Notes: generated from the sequence alone by a model not told the origin. Numbered from the stretch's first letter, positions 6,512-25,978 are shown. The stretch is DNA of 32,000 bases from an uncultured bacterium (GCA_964640155.1 CAZXEQ010000001.1:456403-488402); one strand, 5' to 3'. Numbers and translations are program-made.

Positions 6512-6638
6512 ATAAAAGTGTGTCCTTTATAATTCGGGTGACACTCGGCGGGGAGTTCCACCGTGCGCAATTCTTCATGAGCACGGTAGGGCTGACGAGT
6601 GGCAGGCCCCGCTTCTTAACAAAAGGATACACTTTTAT
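6512..6638 (+). repeat. Family-A GC-rich palindromic element, copy 2 (full length, 127 nt)
   Basis: ataaaagtgtgtcctttataattcgggtgacactcggcggggagttccaccgtgcgcaattcttcatgagcacggtagggctgacgagtggcaggccccgcttcttaacaaaaggatacacttttat. The ends and the internal arms are mutually complementary. Confidence 0.85.
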
Positions 6639-6726: not shown

Positions 6727-7782
6727 ATGAAAGAGACTTCTGTCCTTGAAAAGACTTTATCTCATTTGACCCAAGAAGGAGAGCTTTATAAAAACATTGG
6801 AGAAGGAAAAATTCAATGTTTTGCATGTGGGCATCTTTGCAAAATACAAGACGGAAAAGTTGGAGTTTGTCGTGTTCGTTTTAACAGAAAAGGAAAACTC
6901 TATGTCCCCCACGGTTATGTCGGAGCTCTTCAATGTGATCCCATAGAAAAAAAACCTTTCTTTCATGTTTTACCTGGGAACACTGCTTTAAGTTTTGGGA
7001 TGCTTGGTTGCGATTTTCATTGCAGCTATTGCCAAAATTGGATGACTTCCCAAGTTTTGAGAGATCCTGAAGCAACAAGCGCGCCAGAGCATATTACAGC
7101 TTTAAACCTCGTTAATCTTGCCCAAAAATATAAAGCGAAAGTTCTCGCTAGTACTTACAATGAGCCCCTGATCACAAGTGAATGGGCTGTTTGCATTTTT
7201 AAAGAGGCAAAAAAATTTGGGTTTAAAACTGCTTATATTTCAAACGGAAATGGCACATCTGAAGTTTTACAGTATCTCAAACCTTGGGTTGATTTTTACA
7301 AAGTAGATTTAAAAAGTTTTAATCCCAAGCATTATCTAGAGCTAGGTGGCAAACTCGAAACCATTTTGAATACCATTCAACTCTTGAAACAAATGAATTT
7401 TTGGGTTGAGATTGTGACGCTTTGCATCCCAGGCTTTAATGACTCTGATAAAGAATTAAAATCAATGGCTCAATTCTTAGTTTCTGTCTCTGAAGAAATT
7501 CCATGGCATATCACTGCTTTTTATCAGAACTATAAAATGAGAGACAACAACAATACCTCAGTTAAAACTCTCTTGAGAGCAGCAAAAATAGGGCAAGAAG
7601 CAGGATTGAAATTTGTTTACGCCGGTAATATTCCTGGACAAGTTGGCAATTTAGAAAATACCTACTGCCCACAATGTAAAACTCTTTTAATTGAACGATA
7701 TGGGTTTAAAGTTTTAAAAAATCTTCTTAAAAATGGAAATTGTCCGAGTTGCAAAGCTCAAATTCCAGGAGTATGGGACTGA
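6727..7782 (+). CDS. amrS: AmmeMemoRadiSam-system radical SAM enzyme (PFL-activase-like)
   Basis: 351 aa. N-terminal Cys cluster CFACGHLC...CRVR, radical SAM CDFHCSYCQNW (CxxxCxxC), C-terminal CPQC...CPSC. Confidence 0.8.
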   Translation: MKETSVLEKTLSHLTQEGELYKNIGEGKIQCFACGHLCKIQDGKVGVCRVRFNRKGKLYVPHGYVGALQCDPIEKKPFFHVLPGNTALSFGMLGCDFHCSYCQNWMTSQVLRDPEATSAPEHITALNLVNLAQKYKAKVLASTYNEPLITSEWAVCIFKEAKKFGFKTAYISNGNGTSEVLQYLKPWVDFYKVDLKSFNPKHYLELGGKLETILNTIQLLKQMNFWVEIVTLCIPGFNDSDKELKSMAQFLVSVSEEIPWHITAFYQNYKMRDNNNTSVKTLLRAAKIGQEAGLKFVYAGNIPGQVGNLENTYCPQCKTLLIERYGFKVLKNLLKNGNCPSCKAQIPGVWD

Positions 7783-12334: not shown

Positions 12335-13182
12335 ACTTTACCCTTAAAGAATCTTATCTACTTTGTTCGAACATCGCAAAATCCAAAGCTAAAAATTTTT
12401 ATTATGGGTTTATTCTCTTACCCAAAGCAAAACGCATGGCCATGTCTGCTGTCTATGCTTTCATGAGAATTTGTGATGATATTGTGGATGAGCATGCCAA
12501 TGCTATTGTTAAAACTCAAAAGCTCAATGAATGGAAAGAAAAAGTTCAAAAACTTTTAGACAATCAAGACCTTTCCCATCCTATATTCCCTGCATTACAC
12601 GATACAATTCAAAAGTTCGAAATCCCTCATCGTTATTTTTTAGAAGCGATAGAAGGGGTCGAAATGGATTTAGAGAATCGCCGCTTTGAAAAATTTGAAG
12701 ATCTCAAACCCTATTGTCATAAAGTGGCTTCTGTAGTAGGTCTCATCTGTCTTTACATTTTTGGGTTTAAAAATCAGGACGCACTTGTGTACGCAGAAGC
12801 CTGCGGTATGGCCTTTCAGCTCACGAATATTTTGAGAGACATCAAAGAAGACATCGAAATGGGAAGAGTTTATCTTCCTCAAGAGGATCTCAAGAAATTT
12901 GGGTATTCAGAAAAAGATTTAAAAGATGGTCTTTACAATCAAGCTTTTCAACAATTGATGCGGTTTGAAGTTGAAAAAGCTGAAAAATTCTATGCTGAAG
13001 CTCTAAAACTACCTTCTCTGATTGAAAAAGACAGTCAAAAATCTCTTCAAGTGATGATCAAAATTTATCATAGGCTGTTAAAAAAAATATGCAAATCTAA
13101 TTACAATATTTTCTCTGAGCGCATTCATTTGAGTCTTTTTGAGAAAATAAAAATTTTGATTTCCCCTTCACTCTCATCATGA
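12331..13182 (+). CDS. hpnD: Presqualene diphosphate synthase HpnD
   Basis: NFYYGFILLPKAKRMAMSAVYAFMRICDDIVDE and NILRDIKEDIEMGRVYLP match the HpnD-type signature. Translationally coupled to its neighbours. Confidence 0.85.
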   Translation: MNFTLKESYLLCSNIAKSKAKNFYYGFILLPKAKRMAMSAVYAFMRICDDIVDEHANAIVKTQKLNEWKEKVQKLLDNQDLSHPIFPALHDTIQKFEIPHRYFLEAIEGVEMDLENRRFEKFEDLKPYCHKVASVVGLICLYIFGFKNQDALVYAEACGMAFQLTNILRDIKEDIEMGRVYLPQEDLKKFGYSEKDLKDGLYNQAFQQLMRFEVEKAEKFYAEALKLPSLIEKDSQKSLQVMIKIYHRLLKKICKSNYNIFSERIHLSLFEKIKILISPSLSS

Positions 13183-14510
13183 AAACCGTCACCATTATCG
13201 GAGGAGGTTTAGCAGGAATTTCAGCTGCAACACACCTAGCTGAATCTGGATGGAATGTGACCCTTCTTGAAAAAAGATCAATACTAGGAGGCAGAGCCTC
13301 TTCTGTCGTAGATCCAGAAACTGGACAAACCATCGATAATTGCCAGCATGTTCTCCTAGGTTGCTGCATAGAATTAATGGATTTCTATAAAAAAATCGGA
13401 GTGGAATCCAATATTCACTTTCAAAAAGAATATTTGTTCATCACCCCCGATCAAAAAGTCTCCAAACTCAAAGGGATCTTTTTCCCCGCTCCATTTCACA
13501 TTCTTTTTTCTTTTATAAAACTCACGTTTTTAAATTTTATCGATAAAGCATCCATCTTTTACGCCATGGCCATCATATTGTTCACATCAACTAAAAAGAT
13601 AAATGCCCTAGAAAAAATTTCTTTTCTAGAATGGCTTCAGAAACATCATCAGACTCAAAAATCCATCGAACGATTCTGGAAAATTATTTTGGTTAGTGCT
13701 TTAAATGAAGATTTAGATCAAATATCTACAAAATATGCTTTTAAAACATTTCAGGAAACTTTTTTAAAAAATAGAAATGGCTATCAGATGGGAGTGCCCA
13801 CTCTTCCTCTTTCTAAACTTTATTCCGAACCTACCATTGAATTTTTAAAACATCATGGAGGAAAAGTTCTATTTCAAAAGAAAGCAAGCAAACTTCGTAT
13901 TTCAGAAAATAAAATTTCAGGGATAGAACTTAGCGATGGATCTATCATCTCAAGCGATATTTATGTTTGTGCTCTTCCTTTTCAAGAGCTTGTAGATATT
14001 CTTCCTGCAGAACTTTTCAATCAATACCCTGAGTTTAACAACATCAAATCACTCAAAACTTCTCCTATTACAGGGATTCATCTTTTCTTTGACAAAATAG
14101 TGATGGAAGCAGAATCCATGATTGTTTTAGATCGAACGATTCAATGGATTTTTAACAAGAGCAAGAACTTTTCAAATCAAACATTAACAGGCCAATATCT
14201 ACAAATCGTCATTAGTGCTTCAAAAGATCTCATTTCTAAAACTAAAAATGAAATTGTTAACCTTGTCTTAAAAGAGCTTCAAGAAATCTTCCCTAAAGTA
14301 AAACAAGCTCATCTCTTGAGAAGTGTTGTCATTAAAGAACTTCATGCAACCTTTTCACCTGATCCAGGGAGTGATGCCCTCCGGCTTTCTCAAAAAACAC
14401 CCATTCAAAATCTTTTTCTGGCTGGAGATTGGACAAAAACAGAGTGGCCTGCCACCATGGAAGGAGCGGTCAGAAGCGGACATGCTGCTGCAAAAGCTAT
14501 TCTCGGATAG
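13179..14510 (+). CDS. hpnE: Hydroxysqualene dehydroxylase HpnE (FAD-dependent amine-oxidase fold)
   Basis: 443 aa. N-terminal IIGGGLAGISAA...LLEKRSILGGRA dinucleotide-binding motif; position after hpnC-hpnD. Confidence 0.85.
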   Translation: MKTVTIIGGGLAGISAATHLAESGWNVTLLEKRSILGGRASSVVDPETGQTIDNCQHVLLGCCIELMDFYKKIGVESNIHFQKEYLFITPDQKVSKLKGIFFPAPFHILFSFIKLTFLNFIDKASIFYAMAIILFTSTKKINALEKISFLEWLQKHHQTQKSIERFWKIILVSALNEDLDQISTKYAFKTFQETFLKNRNGYQMGVPTLPLSKLYSEPTIEFLKHHGGKVLFQKKASKLRISENKISGIELSDGSIISSDIYVCALPFQELVDILPAELFNQYPEFNNIKSLKTSPITGIHLFFDKIVMEAESMIVLDRTIQWIFNKSKNFSNQTLTGQYLQIVISASKDLISKTKNEIVNLVLKELQEIFPKVKQAHLLRSVVIKELHATFSPDPGSDALRLSQKTPIQNLFLAGDWTKTEWPATMEGAVRSGHAAAKAILG

Positions 14511-14524
14511 TAAAGAGAATTTAA

Positions 14525-14655
14525 AAATTGTTTTTTTCTAGGCACGCTCAATTCCCCCGCCGAGGAAATTTTCGTTCAGTGATTCGGTTTGCTTGTCCCG
14601 ATAGTAATCGGGACCCCATGGTCGCAACCCTCATCAATGGCCTCAAAAACAATTT
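14525..14655 (+). repeat. Family-B GC-rich element, copy 1, between the hpnE stop and the hpnG stop
   Basis: An 11-bp perfect AT-rich terminal inverted repeat aaattgttttt (14525-14535) / aaaaacaattt (14645-14655) encloses a GC-rich core with the hairpin gtcccgat-agta-atcgggac (14595-14614). Homologous to the reverse complement of 19552-19676. Confidence 0.75.
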
Positions 14656-14662
14656 CTTATTC

Positions 14663-15409
14663 TTAAATAGCGTTTAAAAACTTCTTCATATATTTTGCCA
14701 ACCGCCCAGAAGATTTATGAGAAGACCATCCCATTCTTAAAAGATAAAAAATATGCCAAGGATGTTTCAAAATTTCTATCAGGACAGGCTTCCAAGCAAT
14801 TTTTCCTTCTTTATTTACCCAAGCACTAAAATCAATCTTAATATCCTGCTTCACATTATCTGAAATTACTCTCAGATTAAAAAATGGGGTTTTATACTTC
14901 GACAAAGCCTCTGCAATAAAACCTGCTTCCATATCCACAGAAAAAGCATGGAAAGCTTTCCCTAATTTTTCCTTTTCTGAAGCCAAAGCAACTGCTTTTG
15001 AAACAGTCAAAGAGGTTCCTGTACAGATTTTAGAAGAAAATTGGGTTAAAGCTTCTTCCCATTTTTTCCATAAACTCTTCAGGAAAATTTCTTTTGGTCG
15101 ATGATCCCCAGGTCCCTTCTCCCATATCAAAATCTTTTCAGAAAGAAAAACATCTCCAACTTTCAAACTAGGGTTCAATCCCCCTGCATAGCCACAAGAA
15201 AAAACCATATCAGTTGAAGAGGATAAGAGATAATGCTCACAAGCTTTTTGGGTATTTTTTCTCCCCATCCCTGTCACAATCACTGTTATTTCATGAGAAT
15301 TAAAAATTCCATGGAATTCTTTTGAATGAAAAGGGAGATGTTTTAACTTCAGAGCTTTTATAATCAGACGCGCTTCTTCATAAAGAGCACAGAAGATGAG
15401 AATTTTCAT
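14663..15409 (-). CDS. hpnG: Hopanoid-associated nucleosidase/phosphorylase HpnG (PNP_UDP family)
   Basis: 248 aa with a nucleoside-phosphorylase-like fold pattern. 4-nt overlap with shc immediately upstream. Confidence 0.7.
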   Translation of the reverse strand: MKILIFCALYEEARLIIKALKLKHLPFHSKEFHGIFNSHEITVIVTGMGRKNTQKACEHYLLSSSTDMVFSCGYAGGLNPSLKVGDVFLSEKILIWEKGPGDHRPKEIFLKSLWKKWEEALTQFSSKICTGTSLTVSKAVALASEKEKLGKAFHAFSVDMEAGFIAEALSKYKTPFFNLRVISDNVKQDIKIDFSAWVNKEGKIAWKPVLIEILKHPWHIFYLLRMGWSSHKSSGRLAKYMKKFLNAI

Positions 15410-17960: not shown

Positions 17961-18227
17961 CTTGCTCCTTTATATCCAGGCAAATTTTTGCGCTTGGAAT
18001 TGCATTTATGAGGATTCTAGCCTCGTGTAACTATAGTAAGGAATGTAGCTGTAAAGCGACATTTGTTAATACAGGGAGAACATACTACCAGCATTGACCG
18101 CTAAAATACTATCTATTTCCAAGATTGCTACTTCCTGGGATAAACTTTAAAGATAAAATATATGCGTTTTAAATGCGGCCTTTCTTCTTGTATACTACCT
18201 ATAAATCTGAGAAAAAGCCTAAAAACC

Positions 18228-18647
18228 ATGAAAATTCTCAATCATGAAGTCAAATTAGAGACTCAAGGCTTTTGCCATGTTATTGATATCACGGCAGAAG
18301 CAGAAAATACGCTCAAAAAATCAGGCATACAAAATGGACTTATCACTCTTTTTGTCGTGGGGTCTACAGCCGCTCTCACTACCGTAGAATACGAACCCGG
18401 GCTTGTTAAAGATTTGGAAGTGCTTTTTAAGAAAATTGCCCCTCAAGAGCAATATTATCATCATGAAGAAACCTGGCATGATGGAAATGGATTCTCTCAT
18501 GTCCGTGCCTCCCTTCTGAAACCCTCTTTAACTATCCCAATCGCTAACGGTCAAATGACACTTGGAACCTGGCAGCAAATTGTGCTCATTGACTTCGATA
18601 ATCGTCCCCGAACCCGAGCTGTGGCCGTGCAGGTGATGGGAGAGTAA
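18228..18647 (+). CDS. yjbQ: YjbQ/UPF0047-family protein (secondary thiamine-phosphate synthase-like)
   Basis: Start moved to the ATG at 18228 (MKILNHEV). TAALTTVEYEPG...HVRASL...GTWQQIVLIDFD are family motifs. Confidence 0.8.
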   Translation: MKILNHEVKLETQGFCHVIDITAEAENTLKKSGIQNGLITLFVVGSTAALTTVEYEPGLVKDLEVLFKKIAPQEQYYHHEETWHDGNGFSHVRASLLKPSLTIPIANGQMTLGTWQQIVLIDFDNRPRTRAVAVQVMGE

Positions 18648-18669
18648 ATTATAATATAATTACCTAACT

Positions 18670-19161
18670 CTATTTAATATCTGTACGCATTCGGTCAAAC
18701 TCGTTCTTCCATTGAATATAGCGGCGACTTCGAACTTCATGCTCACCCCCCAACTCAGACAACCGACTGTCACAGTAAATCTTAATGAGAAGAGCATGCG
18801 ATTTCCTAGAATAAAACAAGCGACCAATATATTCCACTCGTGTATCAATTTTTAACTGTGAATTTTTATCAAAGATAGTAGATCTAACCGAACGGACTTG
18901 ACGATCATTCAGGTAAGCTACCCCTTCAAGAGCGTCAAGAGTGGGTTTGATAACGTTGTCTGCATCCATCCTCACGTCTTTCGGTATATCTGTTACGTAT
19001 GCAATCTCAATCTCGATATCGTTAGTAGTAATTGGGCTGGCAATTTCTGACCTAGCCGCAGTTTGTACAGCGGTGTAATACATCTTTTTACCTCGGCTTG
19101 TCGTCGGGCGCTCTTCGACCCAGACCAAATAGGCAGGCGTTTCAGATTGATTATGTTTCAT
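18670..19161 (-). CDS. rusA: RusA-like Holliday-junction resolvase (phage-type), C-terminally extended
   Basis: DADNVIKPTLDALEGVAYLNDRQV aligns with the RusA DLDNLQKAAFDAL...DDAQV catalytic segment. Four hand-counted 60-nt lines give 42-57% GC, against about 35% in a neighbouring galE line. Confidence 0.65.
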   Translation of the reverse strand: MKHNQSETPAYLVWVEERPTTSRGKKMYYTAVQTAARSEIASPITTNDIEIEIAYVTDIPKDVRMDADNVIKPTLDALEGVAYLNDRQVRSVRSTIFDKNSQLKIDTRVEYIGRLFYSRKSHALLIKIYCDSRLSELGGEHEVRSRRYIQWKNEFDRMRTDIK

Positions 19162-19277
19162 ACCATCACCACTCTACAATAAGGTTGCCAGTTTGTCTCA
19201 TCAGTGCCCAAATGTGAAACGCCATTAGAGCTAGAACAATTATAGTTAAGCAAGTATTTTTTATGCTTCCTCTTTAA

Positions 19278-19523
19278 TCACGAAGCCTTTCGATAAAGGT
19301 TCGCATATCTATCTAGAACCTCCCGAATCATTTTCTGATACTTCGTGTGATAAGTCCCTGCTTCATGTTTAAAGAAATCTACACTGGATTTTTTAATAGA
19401 AATCGTGATTTTCACATTTTCGTCTGGAATGACAAGATCTTTAGGAGATGGCAGAAAATCTTTGACTCTTGTAAGCCTCCCTAAAGGCATATCCTCATCT
19501 ATGTCTATTTTCTTTCTTTTCAT
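19278..19523 (-). CDS. Ribbon-helix-helix (CopG/BrnA-like) type II antitoxin with no adjacent toxin
   Basis: 81 aa. DFLPSPKDLV...KITISIKKSSVDFFKHEA...YQKMIREVLDRY is the pattern of CopG/BrnA-type antitoxins as I remember them; SD ggggaagga. Confidence 0.6.
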   Translation of the reverse strand: MKRKKIDIDEDMPLGRLTRVKDFLPSPKDLVIPDENVKITISIKKSSVDFFKHEAGTYHTKYQKMIREVLDRYANLYRKAS

Positions 19524-19551
19524 AATATTCCTTCCCCTTATGCTGAAAACT

Positions 19552-19676
19552 AATTTAATTTAGTGACCATTGAAGGTTGAGCGAGCACGGCGTCCCGAGG
19601 TTAATCGGAACAAGCGAAACCTTCTTTGAGATAACTTTCCTCGCAGGGGAAAGTTATCGTGTCACAAAATTTAATT
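19552..19676 (-). repeat. Family-B GC-rich element, copy 2 (inverted relative to copy 1), just downstream of the nadE stop
   Basis: Terminal inverted repeat aatttaatttagtgac (19552-19567) / gtcacaaaatttaatt (19661-19676), 14/16. The reverse complement aligns with 14541-14640 (about 74% in the best ~58-nt block). Contains an 11-bp perfect hairpin at 19630-19658. Confidence 0.7.
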
Positions 19677-19690
19677 GGTTTTCTATTCCC

Positions 19691-25181: not shown

Positions 25182-25208
25182 ACATTAAAATTTATTAATT
25201 CCCACAAG

Positions 25209-25217
25209 TTATCCACA
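25209..25217 (+). promoter_or_regulatory. Perfect DnaA box TTATCCACA
   Basis: Exact match to the 9-mer consensus, at the left edge of the AT-rich gap. Confidence 0.5.
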
Positions 25218-25969
25218 CCTTACTCACAGGCCATAAAAGCTCAAACTCAAAGAAAACCCTCTTCGAGATAAAAATTTAAACGAAAATTCGAAAACAGTTT
25301 TTTCCTCTCTAAATAAAAAAAATAATCTCAAAACAAGATTCTTTTTAGAAAATTTTATAAAAAAATAAATATTTTTTAATTTCTCAATATGAAATTTGGA
25401 AAACTTTCCTCTTTCTTCAAAATTGAACGAAATGAATAAAAATTTCAATGCAAGCAAGGTTTAATTCTGTATTTTTAATTTTAAGAAGAAAAAAGGAACT
25501 TGATGCCAACCTTTTTAGTTTTAGTTAAAAAATTTAAAAAATATTTGAGAACACTACAGGAATAGAATTTTAAAAATATAATATGCTCTGTTAGAACTAG
25601 TTACATATATACGATCGAATTTAGAAATAGACCAGTGTCCTAATTTTTTAAAAAGAGTATTGCTCTCGTATTTCTCTCAAAAATGAAACTCGCATTGAAA
25701 AAGTATCTTCAATTTATTTCAAAATGATTTCTACTGCACAACTTAGGTAAAAATAAAGTTTGAGCTCAAATAGAAAGTAAATTTTTGGTTTATGAAAATT
25801 TTTTCTTCTGCTCAAAAGAAAATCATGCAAGAATGCTCACAAAAATTTTTAAGAACATAAAAAAGCAGAGAAAGAGAAAATAGTTTTTACTTTTATAACA
25901 TCCAAAGAGAAAAATCGAAGCTACTTAGGCAAGTTCCATATCAAAAATGATTGATGATTTAATCCAAGG

Positions 25970-25978
25970 TTATCCACA
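25970..25978 (+). promoter_or_regulatory. Perfect DnaA box TTATCCACA
   Basis: Exact match in the same orientation, at the right edge of the AT-rich gap, abutting the ATG at 25979. Confidence 0.5.

Follow-up and report, generated by a model that had tools for sequence, protein, structure and literature searches.

The window, the whole stretch of 32,000 nt that was analyzed, corresponds to C1:456403-488402 of an Auribacterota genome (the source genome, G000; 2.44 Mb, 38% GC, 14 contigs, 97% complete) and contains two copies of an element here called family B. Copy 1 occupies 14520-14661 on the plus strand (98.1 bits, E 1.9e-26 with the covariance model R1 described below) and sits between the stop of an hpnE-like amine oxidase gene (13179-14510) and a convergent PNP_UDP_1 (hpnG-like) gene (14663-15409, minus strand), as assigned with Pfam. 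The 5′ arm of its closing stem P1, AAATTGTTTTT (14525-14535, +), was placed by sequence, R1 alignment and MFE fold and pairs with the 3′ arm, AAAAACAATTT (14645-14655, +), with a possible extension of the stem on the same strand to about 14513-14664. Within the stem, family alignments and pair counts place hairpin P2 at 14550-14569 (+), where the loop motif CCC-N-SCGAG reads CCCCCGCCGAGG. Hairpin P4 (14595-14614, +; GTCCCGAT [AGTA] ATCGGGAC) has a conserved stem and a variable loop, and the unpaired motif CCCATGGTCGC (14615-14625, +), with the consensus ACCRTGSYCGC in the family alignments, follows it directly.

Copy 2 lies on the minus strand at 19545-19682 (R1 122.3 bits, E 1.6e-33). It starts 8 nt past the stop codon of nadE (19693-19691) and precedes an 81-aa RHH-like ORF (19278-19523). 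Its closing stem pairs 19683-19663 with 19565-19545 (minus strand) and contains two mismatches. Hairpin P2, GATAACTTTCC [CCTGCGA] GGAAAGTTATC (19630-19658, minus strand), is seen in the sequence, the MFE fold and the R1 alignment, and hairpin P4, GTTCCGA [TTAACC] TCGGGAC (19592-19611, minus strand), which includes one T.G pair, in the sequence and the MFE fold. The unpaired motif of this copy is GCCGTGCTCGCTC (19579-19591, minus strand), placed by sequence and family alignment.

The original prediction described these two elements as homologous, bracketed by terminal inverted repeats, built around a central hairpin with a conserved stem and a variable loop, and free of a canonical U-tract. Each of these points is borne out. 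The pair aligns by blastn with 72% identity over 97 nt and shares blocks in a MAFFT alignment, the inverted repeats are real in both copies, the hairpin is found at 14595-14614 in copy 1 and 19611-19592 in copy 2, and inspection of the sequence finds no canonical U-tract after either. The elements were also located correctly, although the lengths given were slightly short, as each spans ~138-150 nt once the full closing stem is included.

Comparison with related genomes outlines both copies. The same-genus genome G001 lacks the whole stretch of ~14504-14657, and with it copy 1, at the site orthologous to that of the source genome, and copy 1 is apparently missing in G002 too, which, judged by the size of the gap, is ~157 nt shorter there. 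The C-terminus of the hpnE-like amine oxidase is altered by the insertion (window 14498-14512): in the source genome the protein ends in ...AILG* and the element follows, while in G001 it ends in ...AILSKYSKNP*, reaching the convergent gene. Copy 2 forms the edge of a 1.5-kb stretch (18180-19687) that carries a UPF0047/YjbQ-like gene, a RusA-family resolvase, the 81-aa RHH-like ORF and the element, and in place of which G001 has 338 unrelated nt. RusA itself is found in just 4 of 41 genomes of the phylum.

A dispersed repeat in the source genome

Further copies had been predicted, and an iterative nhmmer search of the source genome converged on 31 matches, 27 of them full length. The covariance model R1, built from the 27 full copies, identifies 30 copies in this genome. 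Family B is a gene-less dispersed repeat of ~140 nt that is both oriented and structured. When checked against known families it is also uncatalogued: Rfam 15 gave zero matches in the whole window at the gathering score and, for 10 copies searched at E up to 10, three sub-threshold matches that are all to unrelated families, and no description of the element was found in the literature searched.

In a tree of the cores, the copies of the source genome fall into two subfamilies, with copy 1 and copy 2 on different branches. About 12 copies of subfamily A share a semi-conserved TAYAGGTRA box immediately 5′ of the P1 stem, and at C5:21849 this box belongs to the inserted DNA. The closing stems of subfamily B resemble A-tract/stem/T-tract hairpins, some of which end in T-rich runs. 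A perfect 17-bp hairpin with a 5-nt loop at 1402-1442 of the window (AAGAGAAAGGCATTTCTT...GAAATGCCTTTCTCTTT), which R1 picks up when run without filters, has the look of a bidirectional terminator and is like a subfamily-B closing stem without the core.

Other repeats are found in the neighborhood of family B. A second repeat family of ~190-250 nt (GGGTGACC...CAGGACCC) lies on the same strand 28-90 nt downstream of four family-B copies (C9:~6930-7200, C6:~48090-48380, C2:~473920-474230 and C1:~492150-492470), which indicates that repeats pile up at such sites. The family-B copies at C13:214-349 and C2:338975-339110 have in common, beyond the element itself, a TAYAGGTAA on their left side and, on their right, ~75 nt with another hairpin (AGACRAGTTG...CAAYCGTCT); the duplicated unit may be larger here, or two neighboring repeats may have moved jointly. 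A GGGTGACAC...GGCAGGACCC copy resembling a repeat of the window termed Family A (6512-6638) comes after the family-B copy at C2:174890. Homology between Family A and family B was rejected, with R1 giving Family A just 8 bits; the two have the short motifs CCCCGCCGAG and ACCGTGCTC in common, on opposite strands. Likewise, identity with the tRNA-linked three-way-fold elements of the source genome was rejected, as no common motifs occur downstream of any of its 44 tRNA genes.

Both window copies had been described as lying in sense orientation just after a stop codon. This holds for the source genome, where copies tend to lie 0-35 nt past the stop and those between same-direction genes are 16 in sense and 2 in antisense, but it does not hold across phyla. 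Among the cross-phylum matches listed, the gaps comprise 14 sense and 8 antisense copies between tandem genes, 12 copies between divergent genes and 3 between convergent genes, and in other Auribacterota the bias is weaker (14 sense versus 8 antisense, with crude ORF calls). In the sister genus, one copy (L145, G003:C34:26870-27010) lies between hpnC and hpnD, within the hopanoid operon; these two genes overlap by 4 nt in the source genome. Such a position inside an operon argues against a terminator. In ~26 of the 31 copies of the source genome, the sense strand is the leading strand as defined by GC skew. In this genome, however, genes and replication largely run in one direction, so that the two influences are strongly confounded, and the few discordant cases do not separate them. 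Examination of contigs C1 and C2 showed that the skew is strongly negative over all 621 kb of C1, including the window, and that the sole sign change lies near C2:300 kb. Hence no skew switch coincides with the AT-rich gap with DnaA boxes (25182-25978 of the window) that had earlier been proposed as a candidate origin.

A covarying fold around a three-way junction

All copies of the source genome adopt a common fold, with predicted energies of -34 to -68 kcal/mol for ~138 nt. The closing stem P1 (16-25 bp) is complementary in each copy, with a sequence that differs between copies. Inside P1, a short inner helix (AGAC/GTCT) leads to a three-way junction, the arms of which are hairpin P2, with its CCC-N-SCGAG loop, and a helix P3 that bears hairpin P4. 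Four unpaired segments are conserved, namely GACRCG on the 5′ side of the junction, yTCGCTC before P4, ACCRTGSYCGCTC after P4, and CAAYG before the closing helix.

RNAalifold places 45 pairs in the in-genome alignment, and both sides change in 40 of them. The same structure was then scored in 85 distinct cross-phylum sequences from the matches listed, in which 88% of cells pair, compared to 56% in shuffles, and both sides change in 44 of the 45 pairs. The covariation score of these sequences is 0.673, a value that 0 of 500 shuffles reach, versus 0.168 for shuffles, and the signal collapses when the partner columns are slid by 1-3 positions. These data show that the fold of family B is under selection, and they uphold the earlier view that the copies are not random palindromes. 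A mutual-information scan of the family found zero pairing outside the nested structure, and a pseudoknot between the GCGAG of the P2 loop and the CTCGC motifs was rejected, since covariation is confined to the nested structure.

Helices selected as RNA tolerate G-U pairs but not A-C pairs. In the cross-phylum sequences from the matches listed, G-U/U-G combinations occupy 84 and A-C/C-A combinations 93 of 3560 cells, and the copies of the source genome contain 43 G-U and 39 A-C. The pairing of family B is Watson-Crick only and strand-symmetric. The T.G pair in P4 of copy 2, which would be C.A on the other strand and had been put forward as a sign of RNA, is present but is not representative of the family, and, with G-U no commoner than A-C in the matches listed, it is not evidence for RNA. 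The mismatches that do occur in helices family-wide are skewed on the sense strand, with 306 pyrimidine-pyrimidine versus 28 purine-purine mismatches. In Aminicenantes-type copies (for example L231, L222, L229 and L196), which are ~150-165 nt long, the closing stem runs past a conserved 2x2 TC/TC pyrimidine mismatch loop (..GGC-TC-[stem]...[stem]-TC-GCC..).

Insertion, inversion and spread

To follow the element between relatives, the flanks of 26 copies of the source genome were joined and searched in G001, which belongs to the same genus and is ~90% identical in genes. About 13 loci could be assessed; 8 are empty in G001, including that of copy 1, 3 are filled, and 3 are other or unalignable. 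In the sister genera, 0 of 11 copies (10 in G003 and 1 in G002) lie at a site orthologous to a copy of the source genome. The empty sites of G001 are not clean, with intergenic flanks that have diverged between the two genomes, and a larger segment is flanked by direct repeats of 11-13 nt at 2 of the loci, which means that some sites that appear empty may instead be deletions, possibly by slippage. The entirely different sites in the sister genera still require insertion. The comparison shows that copies of family B have inserted at different sites in different lineages. We also considered whether the closing stem is derived from the target, as would result from insertion into a pre-existing terminator hairpin; this was rejected, as the stem arms are absent from 8 of 8 empty sites.

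The three loci filled in both genomes reveal a second kind of change. At two of them (C5:66081 and C2:478864) the core is reverse-complemented, while the flanks and the locus-specific stem arms remain co-linear and the elements are 93-95% identical; at the third (C5:37878) the orientation is kept. The core can therefore invert in place between its stem arms. Given that cores flip, an orientation bias as strong as that of the source genome calls for insertion that is polar or for selection that acts on orientation.

Within the phylum, R1 detects family B in 10 of 41 genomes, with 0-30 copies each. All four genomes of the window's own taxonomic family carry it (30 matches in G000, 3 in G001, 3 in G002 and 10 in G003), as do three more taxonomic families, for example with 25 matches in G019. 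A wider search used the pattern CCCCNGCGAGGN{38,66}CCRTGCYCRCTC, which consists of two conserved motifs including the unpaired motif after P4, on a collection of species-representative genomes. It returned at least 120 stretches in named MAGs from more than 10 lineages, with ~16 estimated to be expected by chance. The MAG labels among the matches listed include Aminicenantes, Omnitrophota, Planctomycetia/-ales, Saccharibacteria, Taylorbacteria, Patescibacteria, WOR-3, Deltaproteobacteria/Desulfaltia, Krumholzibacteriales, Makaraimicrobium, Gaiellales and Clostridiales/“Eubacteriales”. When R1 was run on 80 loci among the matches listed, it found 86 matches in 78 of the 80, nearly all full length, with E values from 1e-22 to 1e-3. 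A Saccharibacteria MAG of 0.7 Mb contains 16 copies, which have one orientation within each contig. The tree of cores groups the copies mostly according to the lineage of the host, and phyla are intermixed in places. Phage were rejected as the vector, as 2.9 million viral contigs contain one pattern match, which R1 refuses; this lone match serves as a control for chance matches.

Candidate mobilizers, known systems and rival readings

The sequences around and beside the copies were searched for traces of a transposition mechanism. Target-site duplications were found in none of 27, 126 and 124 copies, extended stems included, at a level above the shuffled control, and no tetra- or pentanucleotide was found to recur across the family as a conserved target. 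The flanks show a weak bias, with C at position -1 in 35% and T at +1 in 47%. No flanking protein recurs in the source genome, and at 80 cross-phylum loci among the matches listed the recurrent neighbors are just abundant housekeeping families (such as response regulators, ABC ATPases and epimerases). A parent insertion sequence with matching ends was not found, and a parent IS or any other multi-copy protein gene was rejected as the source, with none in the source genome.

Specific enzymes fared no better. A Y1/RAYT transposase was rejected as the mobilizer, as PF01797 has no match in G000, G001 or G019, of which G000 and G019 are the richest in copies. The presence of this domain does not track that of the element, since it is found in 28 of 31 element-free genomes, and Y1 transposases are common elsewhere in the carrier phyla, including the Saccharibacteria MAG. 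A reverse transcriptase or retron was likewise rejected, with none in G000, G001, G018 or G019. The RusA resolvase beside copy 2 was rejected as a partner because the source genome is the sole element-carrying genome with RusA. GIY-YIG nucleases of the Ssn type, which act on single strands and are associated with NTS/SRM hairpin repeats (Chenal et al., 2025; PMC11893778), offer a likeness in principle, as a high-copy hairpin repeat read as ssDNA by a small trans-acting enzyme is the kind of partnership proposed below for family B. The SRM motif HGTCWY...RNCYNB, however, occurs in 0 of 143 family-B copies and has 2 matches genome-wide in the source genome, GIY-YIG loci are without copies, including the small GIY-YIG gene of the source genome, and the 16-copy Saccharibacteria MAG has zero GIY-YIG matches; an Ssn partner was therefore rejected. 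The sole small GIY-YIG protein of the source genome (C6:87060-87278; L277:1456-1794, minus strand) has 112 aa and a lysine-rich N-terminus and is read as UPF0213/YhbQ-like, and G001 has five small GIY-YIG ORFs.

Family B shares part of its behavior with several known classes of repeats. REP and REPIN elements, which are mobilized by RAYT (Y1 HUH) transposases (PMC3116915; PMC8266576), are likewise gene-less, multi-copy, intergenic and hairpin-forming, keep their structure through compensatory changes, persist for long times as lineage-specific subfamilies, and cause no target-site duplication. Family B differs from them in that G000, G001 and G019 have no RAYT/Y1 and Y1 presence does not follow the element. 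Furthermore, whereas a REPIN is made of two inverted REPs that form one long hairpin, family B forms an asymmetric three-way junction with conserved unpaired motifs, in which P2 is not an inverted version of P3/P4, and one core recurs across many phyla. IS200/IS605 elements and their ORF-less derivatives (PATEs) are similar in their lack of target duplication, their strand specificity and their reliance on DNA hairpins with conserved unpaired bases, and the replication-related orientation bias expected for that mechanism is seen in the source genome. The Y1 transposase that they require is, however, missing from the richest genomes, G000 and G019, there is no conserved target oligonucleotide 5′ of the left end, the bias at -1 and +1 is weak, and the ends of family B pair with each other, which those of IS200/IS605 need not do. 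With the Y1 enzyme missing, family B fails membership in both groups despite its similar behavior.

Classical prokaryotic MITEs, for example Correia, ERIC and RPE (reviewed in PMC3184786 and PMC2229807), resemble family B in being shorter than 300 bp, non-coding and multi-copy, with fold-back terminal inverted repeats, insertion polymorphism between relatives and pile-ups with other repeats. In contrast to MITEs, family B has neither a target-site duplication nor a parent IS with matching ends, and its ends are complementary but hypervariable while the interior is most conserved, which reverses the MITE pattern. Integron attC sites, which are recombined as folded single strands, are also imperfect palindromes (60-140 nt) of variable sequence and conserved structure, and family B shares with them its frequent position just past genes in sense. 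One subfamily has the R″/R′ boxes (RYYYAAC/GTTRRRY) in just 7 of 16 copies, and the other copies inspected have none, so that the attC-like boxes were rejected as chance matches in a minority of copies, and the copies of family B are dispersed and form no cassette arrays. Finally, family B differs from an intrinsic terminator in lacking a U-tract after both window copies and after the copies of subfamily A.

On balance, we consider family B to be probably a structure-constrained, non-autonomous mobile DNA foldback element. In such an element, folded ssDNA or an extruded cruciform would be read by an enzyme acting in trans, which would recognize the junction nucleotides and move the element without a target duplication. 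The element does not encode such an enzyme, and neither a Y1 transposase of the IS200 type nor a reverse transcriptase provides it in the source genome. Near genes, the bias toward sense could arise from polarity of insertion, from selection against harmful orientations, or both; any effect at the RNA level, such as a stable 3′ structure when the element is co-transcribed, would be secondary; and inversion across the stem arms may be a side reaction. Several points stand against a mobile DNA element. The search of Y1, reverse transcriptase and multi-copy genes identified no mobilizing enzyme, the empty sites of G001 are not clean and may in part be deletions, the conserved unpaired nucleotides and variable ends are the pattern of a functional RNA rather than of a classical MITE, and the 16:2 sense bias in the source genome needs selection or a polar mechanism and is inseparable from the direction of replication.

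A rival reading is a cis-acting RNA, in which the fold would be co-transcribed with the upstream gene and serve as a 3′-end protector, a processing site or an unconventional terminator. REP elements protect the 3′ ends of E. coli mRNAs, and it is possible to see the same in family B, as most copies of the source genome lie 0-35 nt past a stop codon, those between same-direction genes are 16 in sense versus 2 in antisense, energies of -34 to -68 kcal/mol make for very stable folds in a 38% GC genome, unpaired nucleotides are conserved across phyla, and the closing stems of one subfamily resemble A-tract/stem/T-tract bidirectional terminators. We nevertheless regard this as unlikely. G-U pairs are not commoner than A-C pairs, two of the three orthologous loci have a core that is inverted in place, and the sense bias dwindles across phyla (among the matches listed, just 14 sense versus 8 antisense, with 12 divergent). 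In addition, copies lie within operons, as between hpnC and hpnD in G003, the larger subfamily has no U-tract, and the orthologous 3′ ends of close relatives are without copies. The original prediction had read both window copies as 3′-UTR RNA structures (a terminator, an RNase barrier or an sRNA), and this RNA-level function is not supported, in view of the pair counts and inversions, of gain and loss between relatives, and of copies in divergent or convergent gaps and inside operons.

Strand-symmetric pairing is better suited to a structure in DNA, and it is conceivable, if improbable, that this structure serves the host, as a recognition site for replication restart or priming, nucleoid organization or recombination, or as an invertible switch. 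Consistent with this are, besides the Watson-Crick-only pairing, the inversion of the core between its stem arms, an orientation that follows the GC-skew strand in ~26 of 31 copies and is uniform per contig in the Saccharibacteria MAG, the presence of the element even in a genome of 0.7 Mb, and the fact that no element-specific enzyme was found. A site of this kind is hard to reconcile with the patchy distribution (10 of 41 genomes of the phylum, 0-30 copies) and with zero positional conservation between genera. Moreover, inspection finds no promoter-like motif conserved in the core, and the pile-ups with other repeat families look like tolerated junk.

A more far-reaching version of mobility can also be considered. 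A small structured repeat is as a rule confined to one lineage and dependent on a transposase that is known, and family B may, although the chance seems rather slim, be a new kind of mobile nucleic-acid element, a self-folding three-way-junction DNA in at least 10 phyla, including CPR genomes of 0.7 Mb, that neither encodes nor co-occurs with a known transposase. It could hijack a universal host enzyme that acts on branched ssDNA, for example a recombinase of the Xer type or a factor for replication restart or priming, or the invariant junction itself could be catalytic, and the flip-flop inversion would arise incidentally in a hairpin-based cycle of replication or transfer. Independently transcribed small RNA genes, with the TAYAGG-like box 5′ of the closing stem in one subfamily as a -10 element, are highly improbable, for although TAYAGGTRA lies directly 5′ of the stem in ~12 subfamily-A copies and within the inserted DNA at C5:21849, it has no -35 to match, a terminator is lacking, the box is missing in the other subfamily and in other phyla, and the arguments from G-U pairs, inversion and turnover apply as well.

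Whether or not it proves to be the mobile DNA foldback element that we favor, family B presents one core fold, with near-invariant unpaired nucleotides and free ends, in Auribacterota, Aminicenantes, Omnitrophota, Planctomycetota, CPR/Patescibacteria, WOR-3, Desulfobacterota-type and other MAGs. Its insertions alter genes, as in copy 1, which took over the last residues of the hpnE-like protein, and they also split operons. The covariance model lets annotators mask the family, so that copies are not mistaken for riboswitches or small RNAs. Once found, the partner of family B could reveal a new structure-specific ssDNA recombinase or nuclease, a class of tools that is actively sought.
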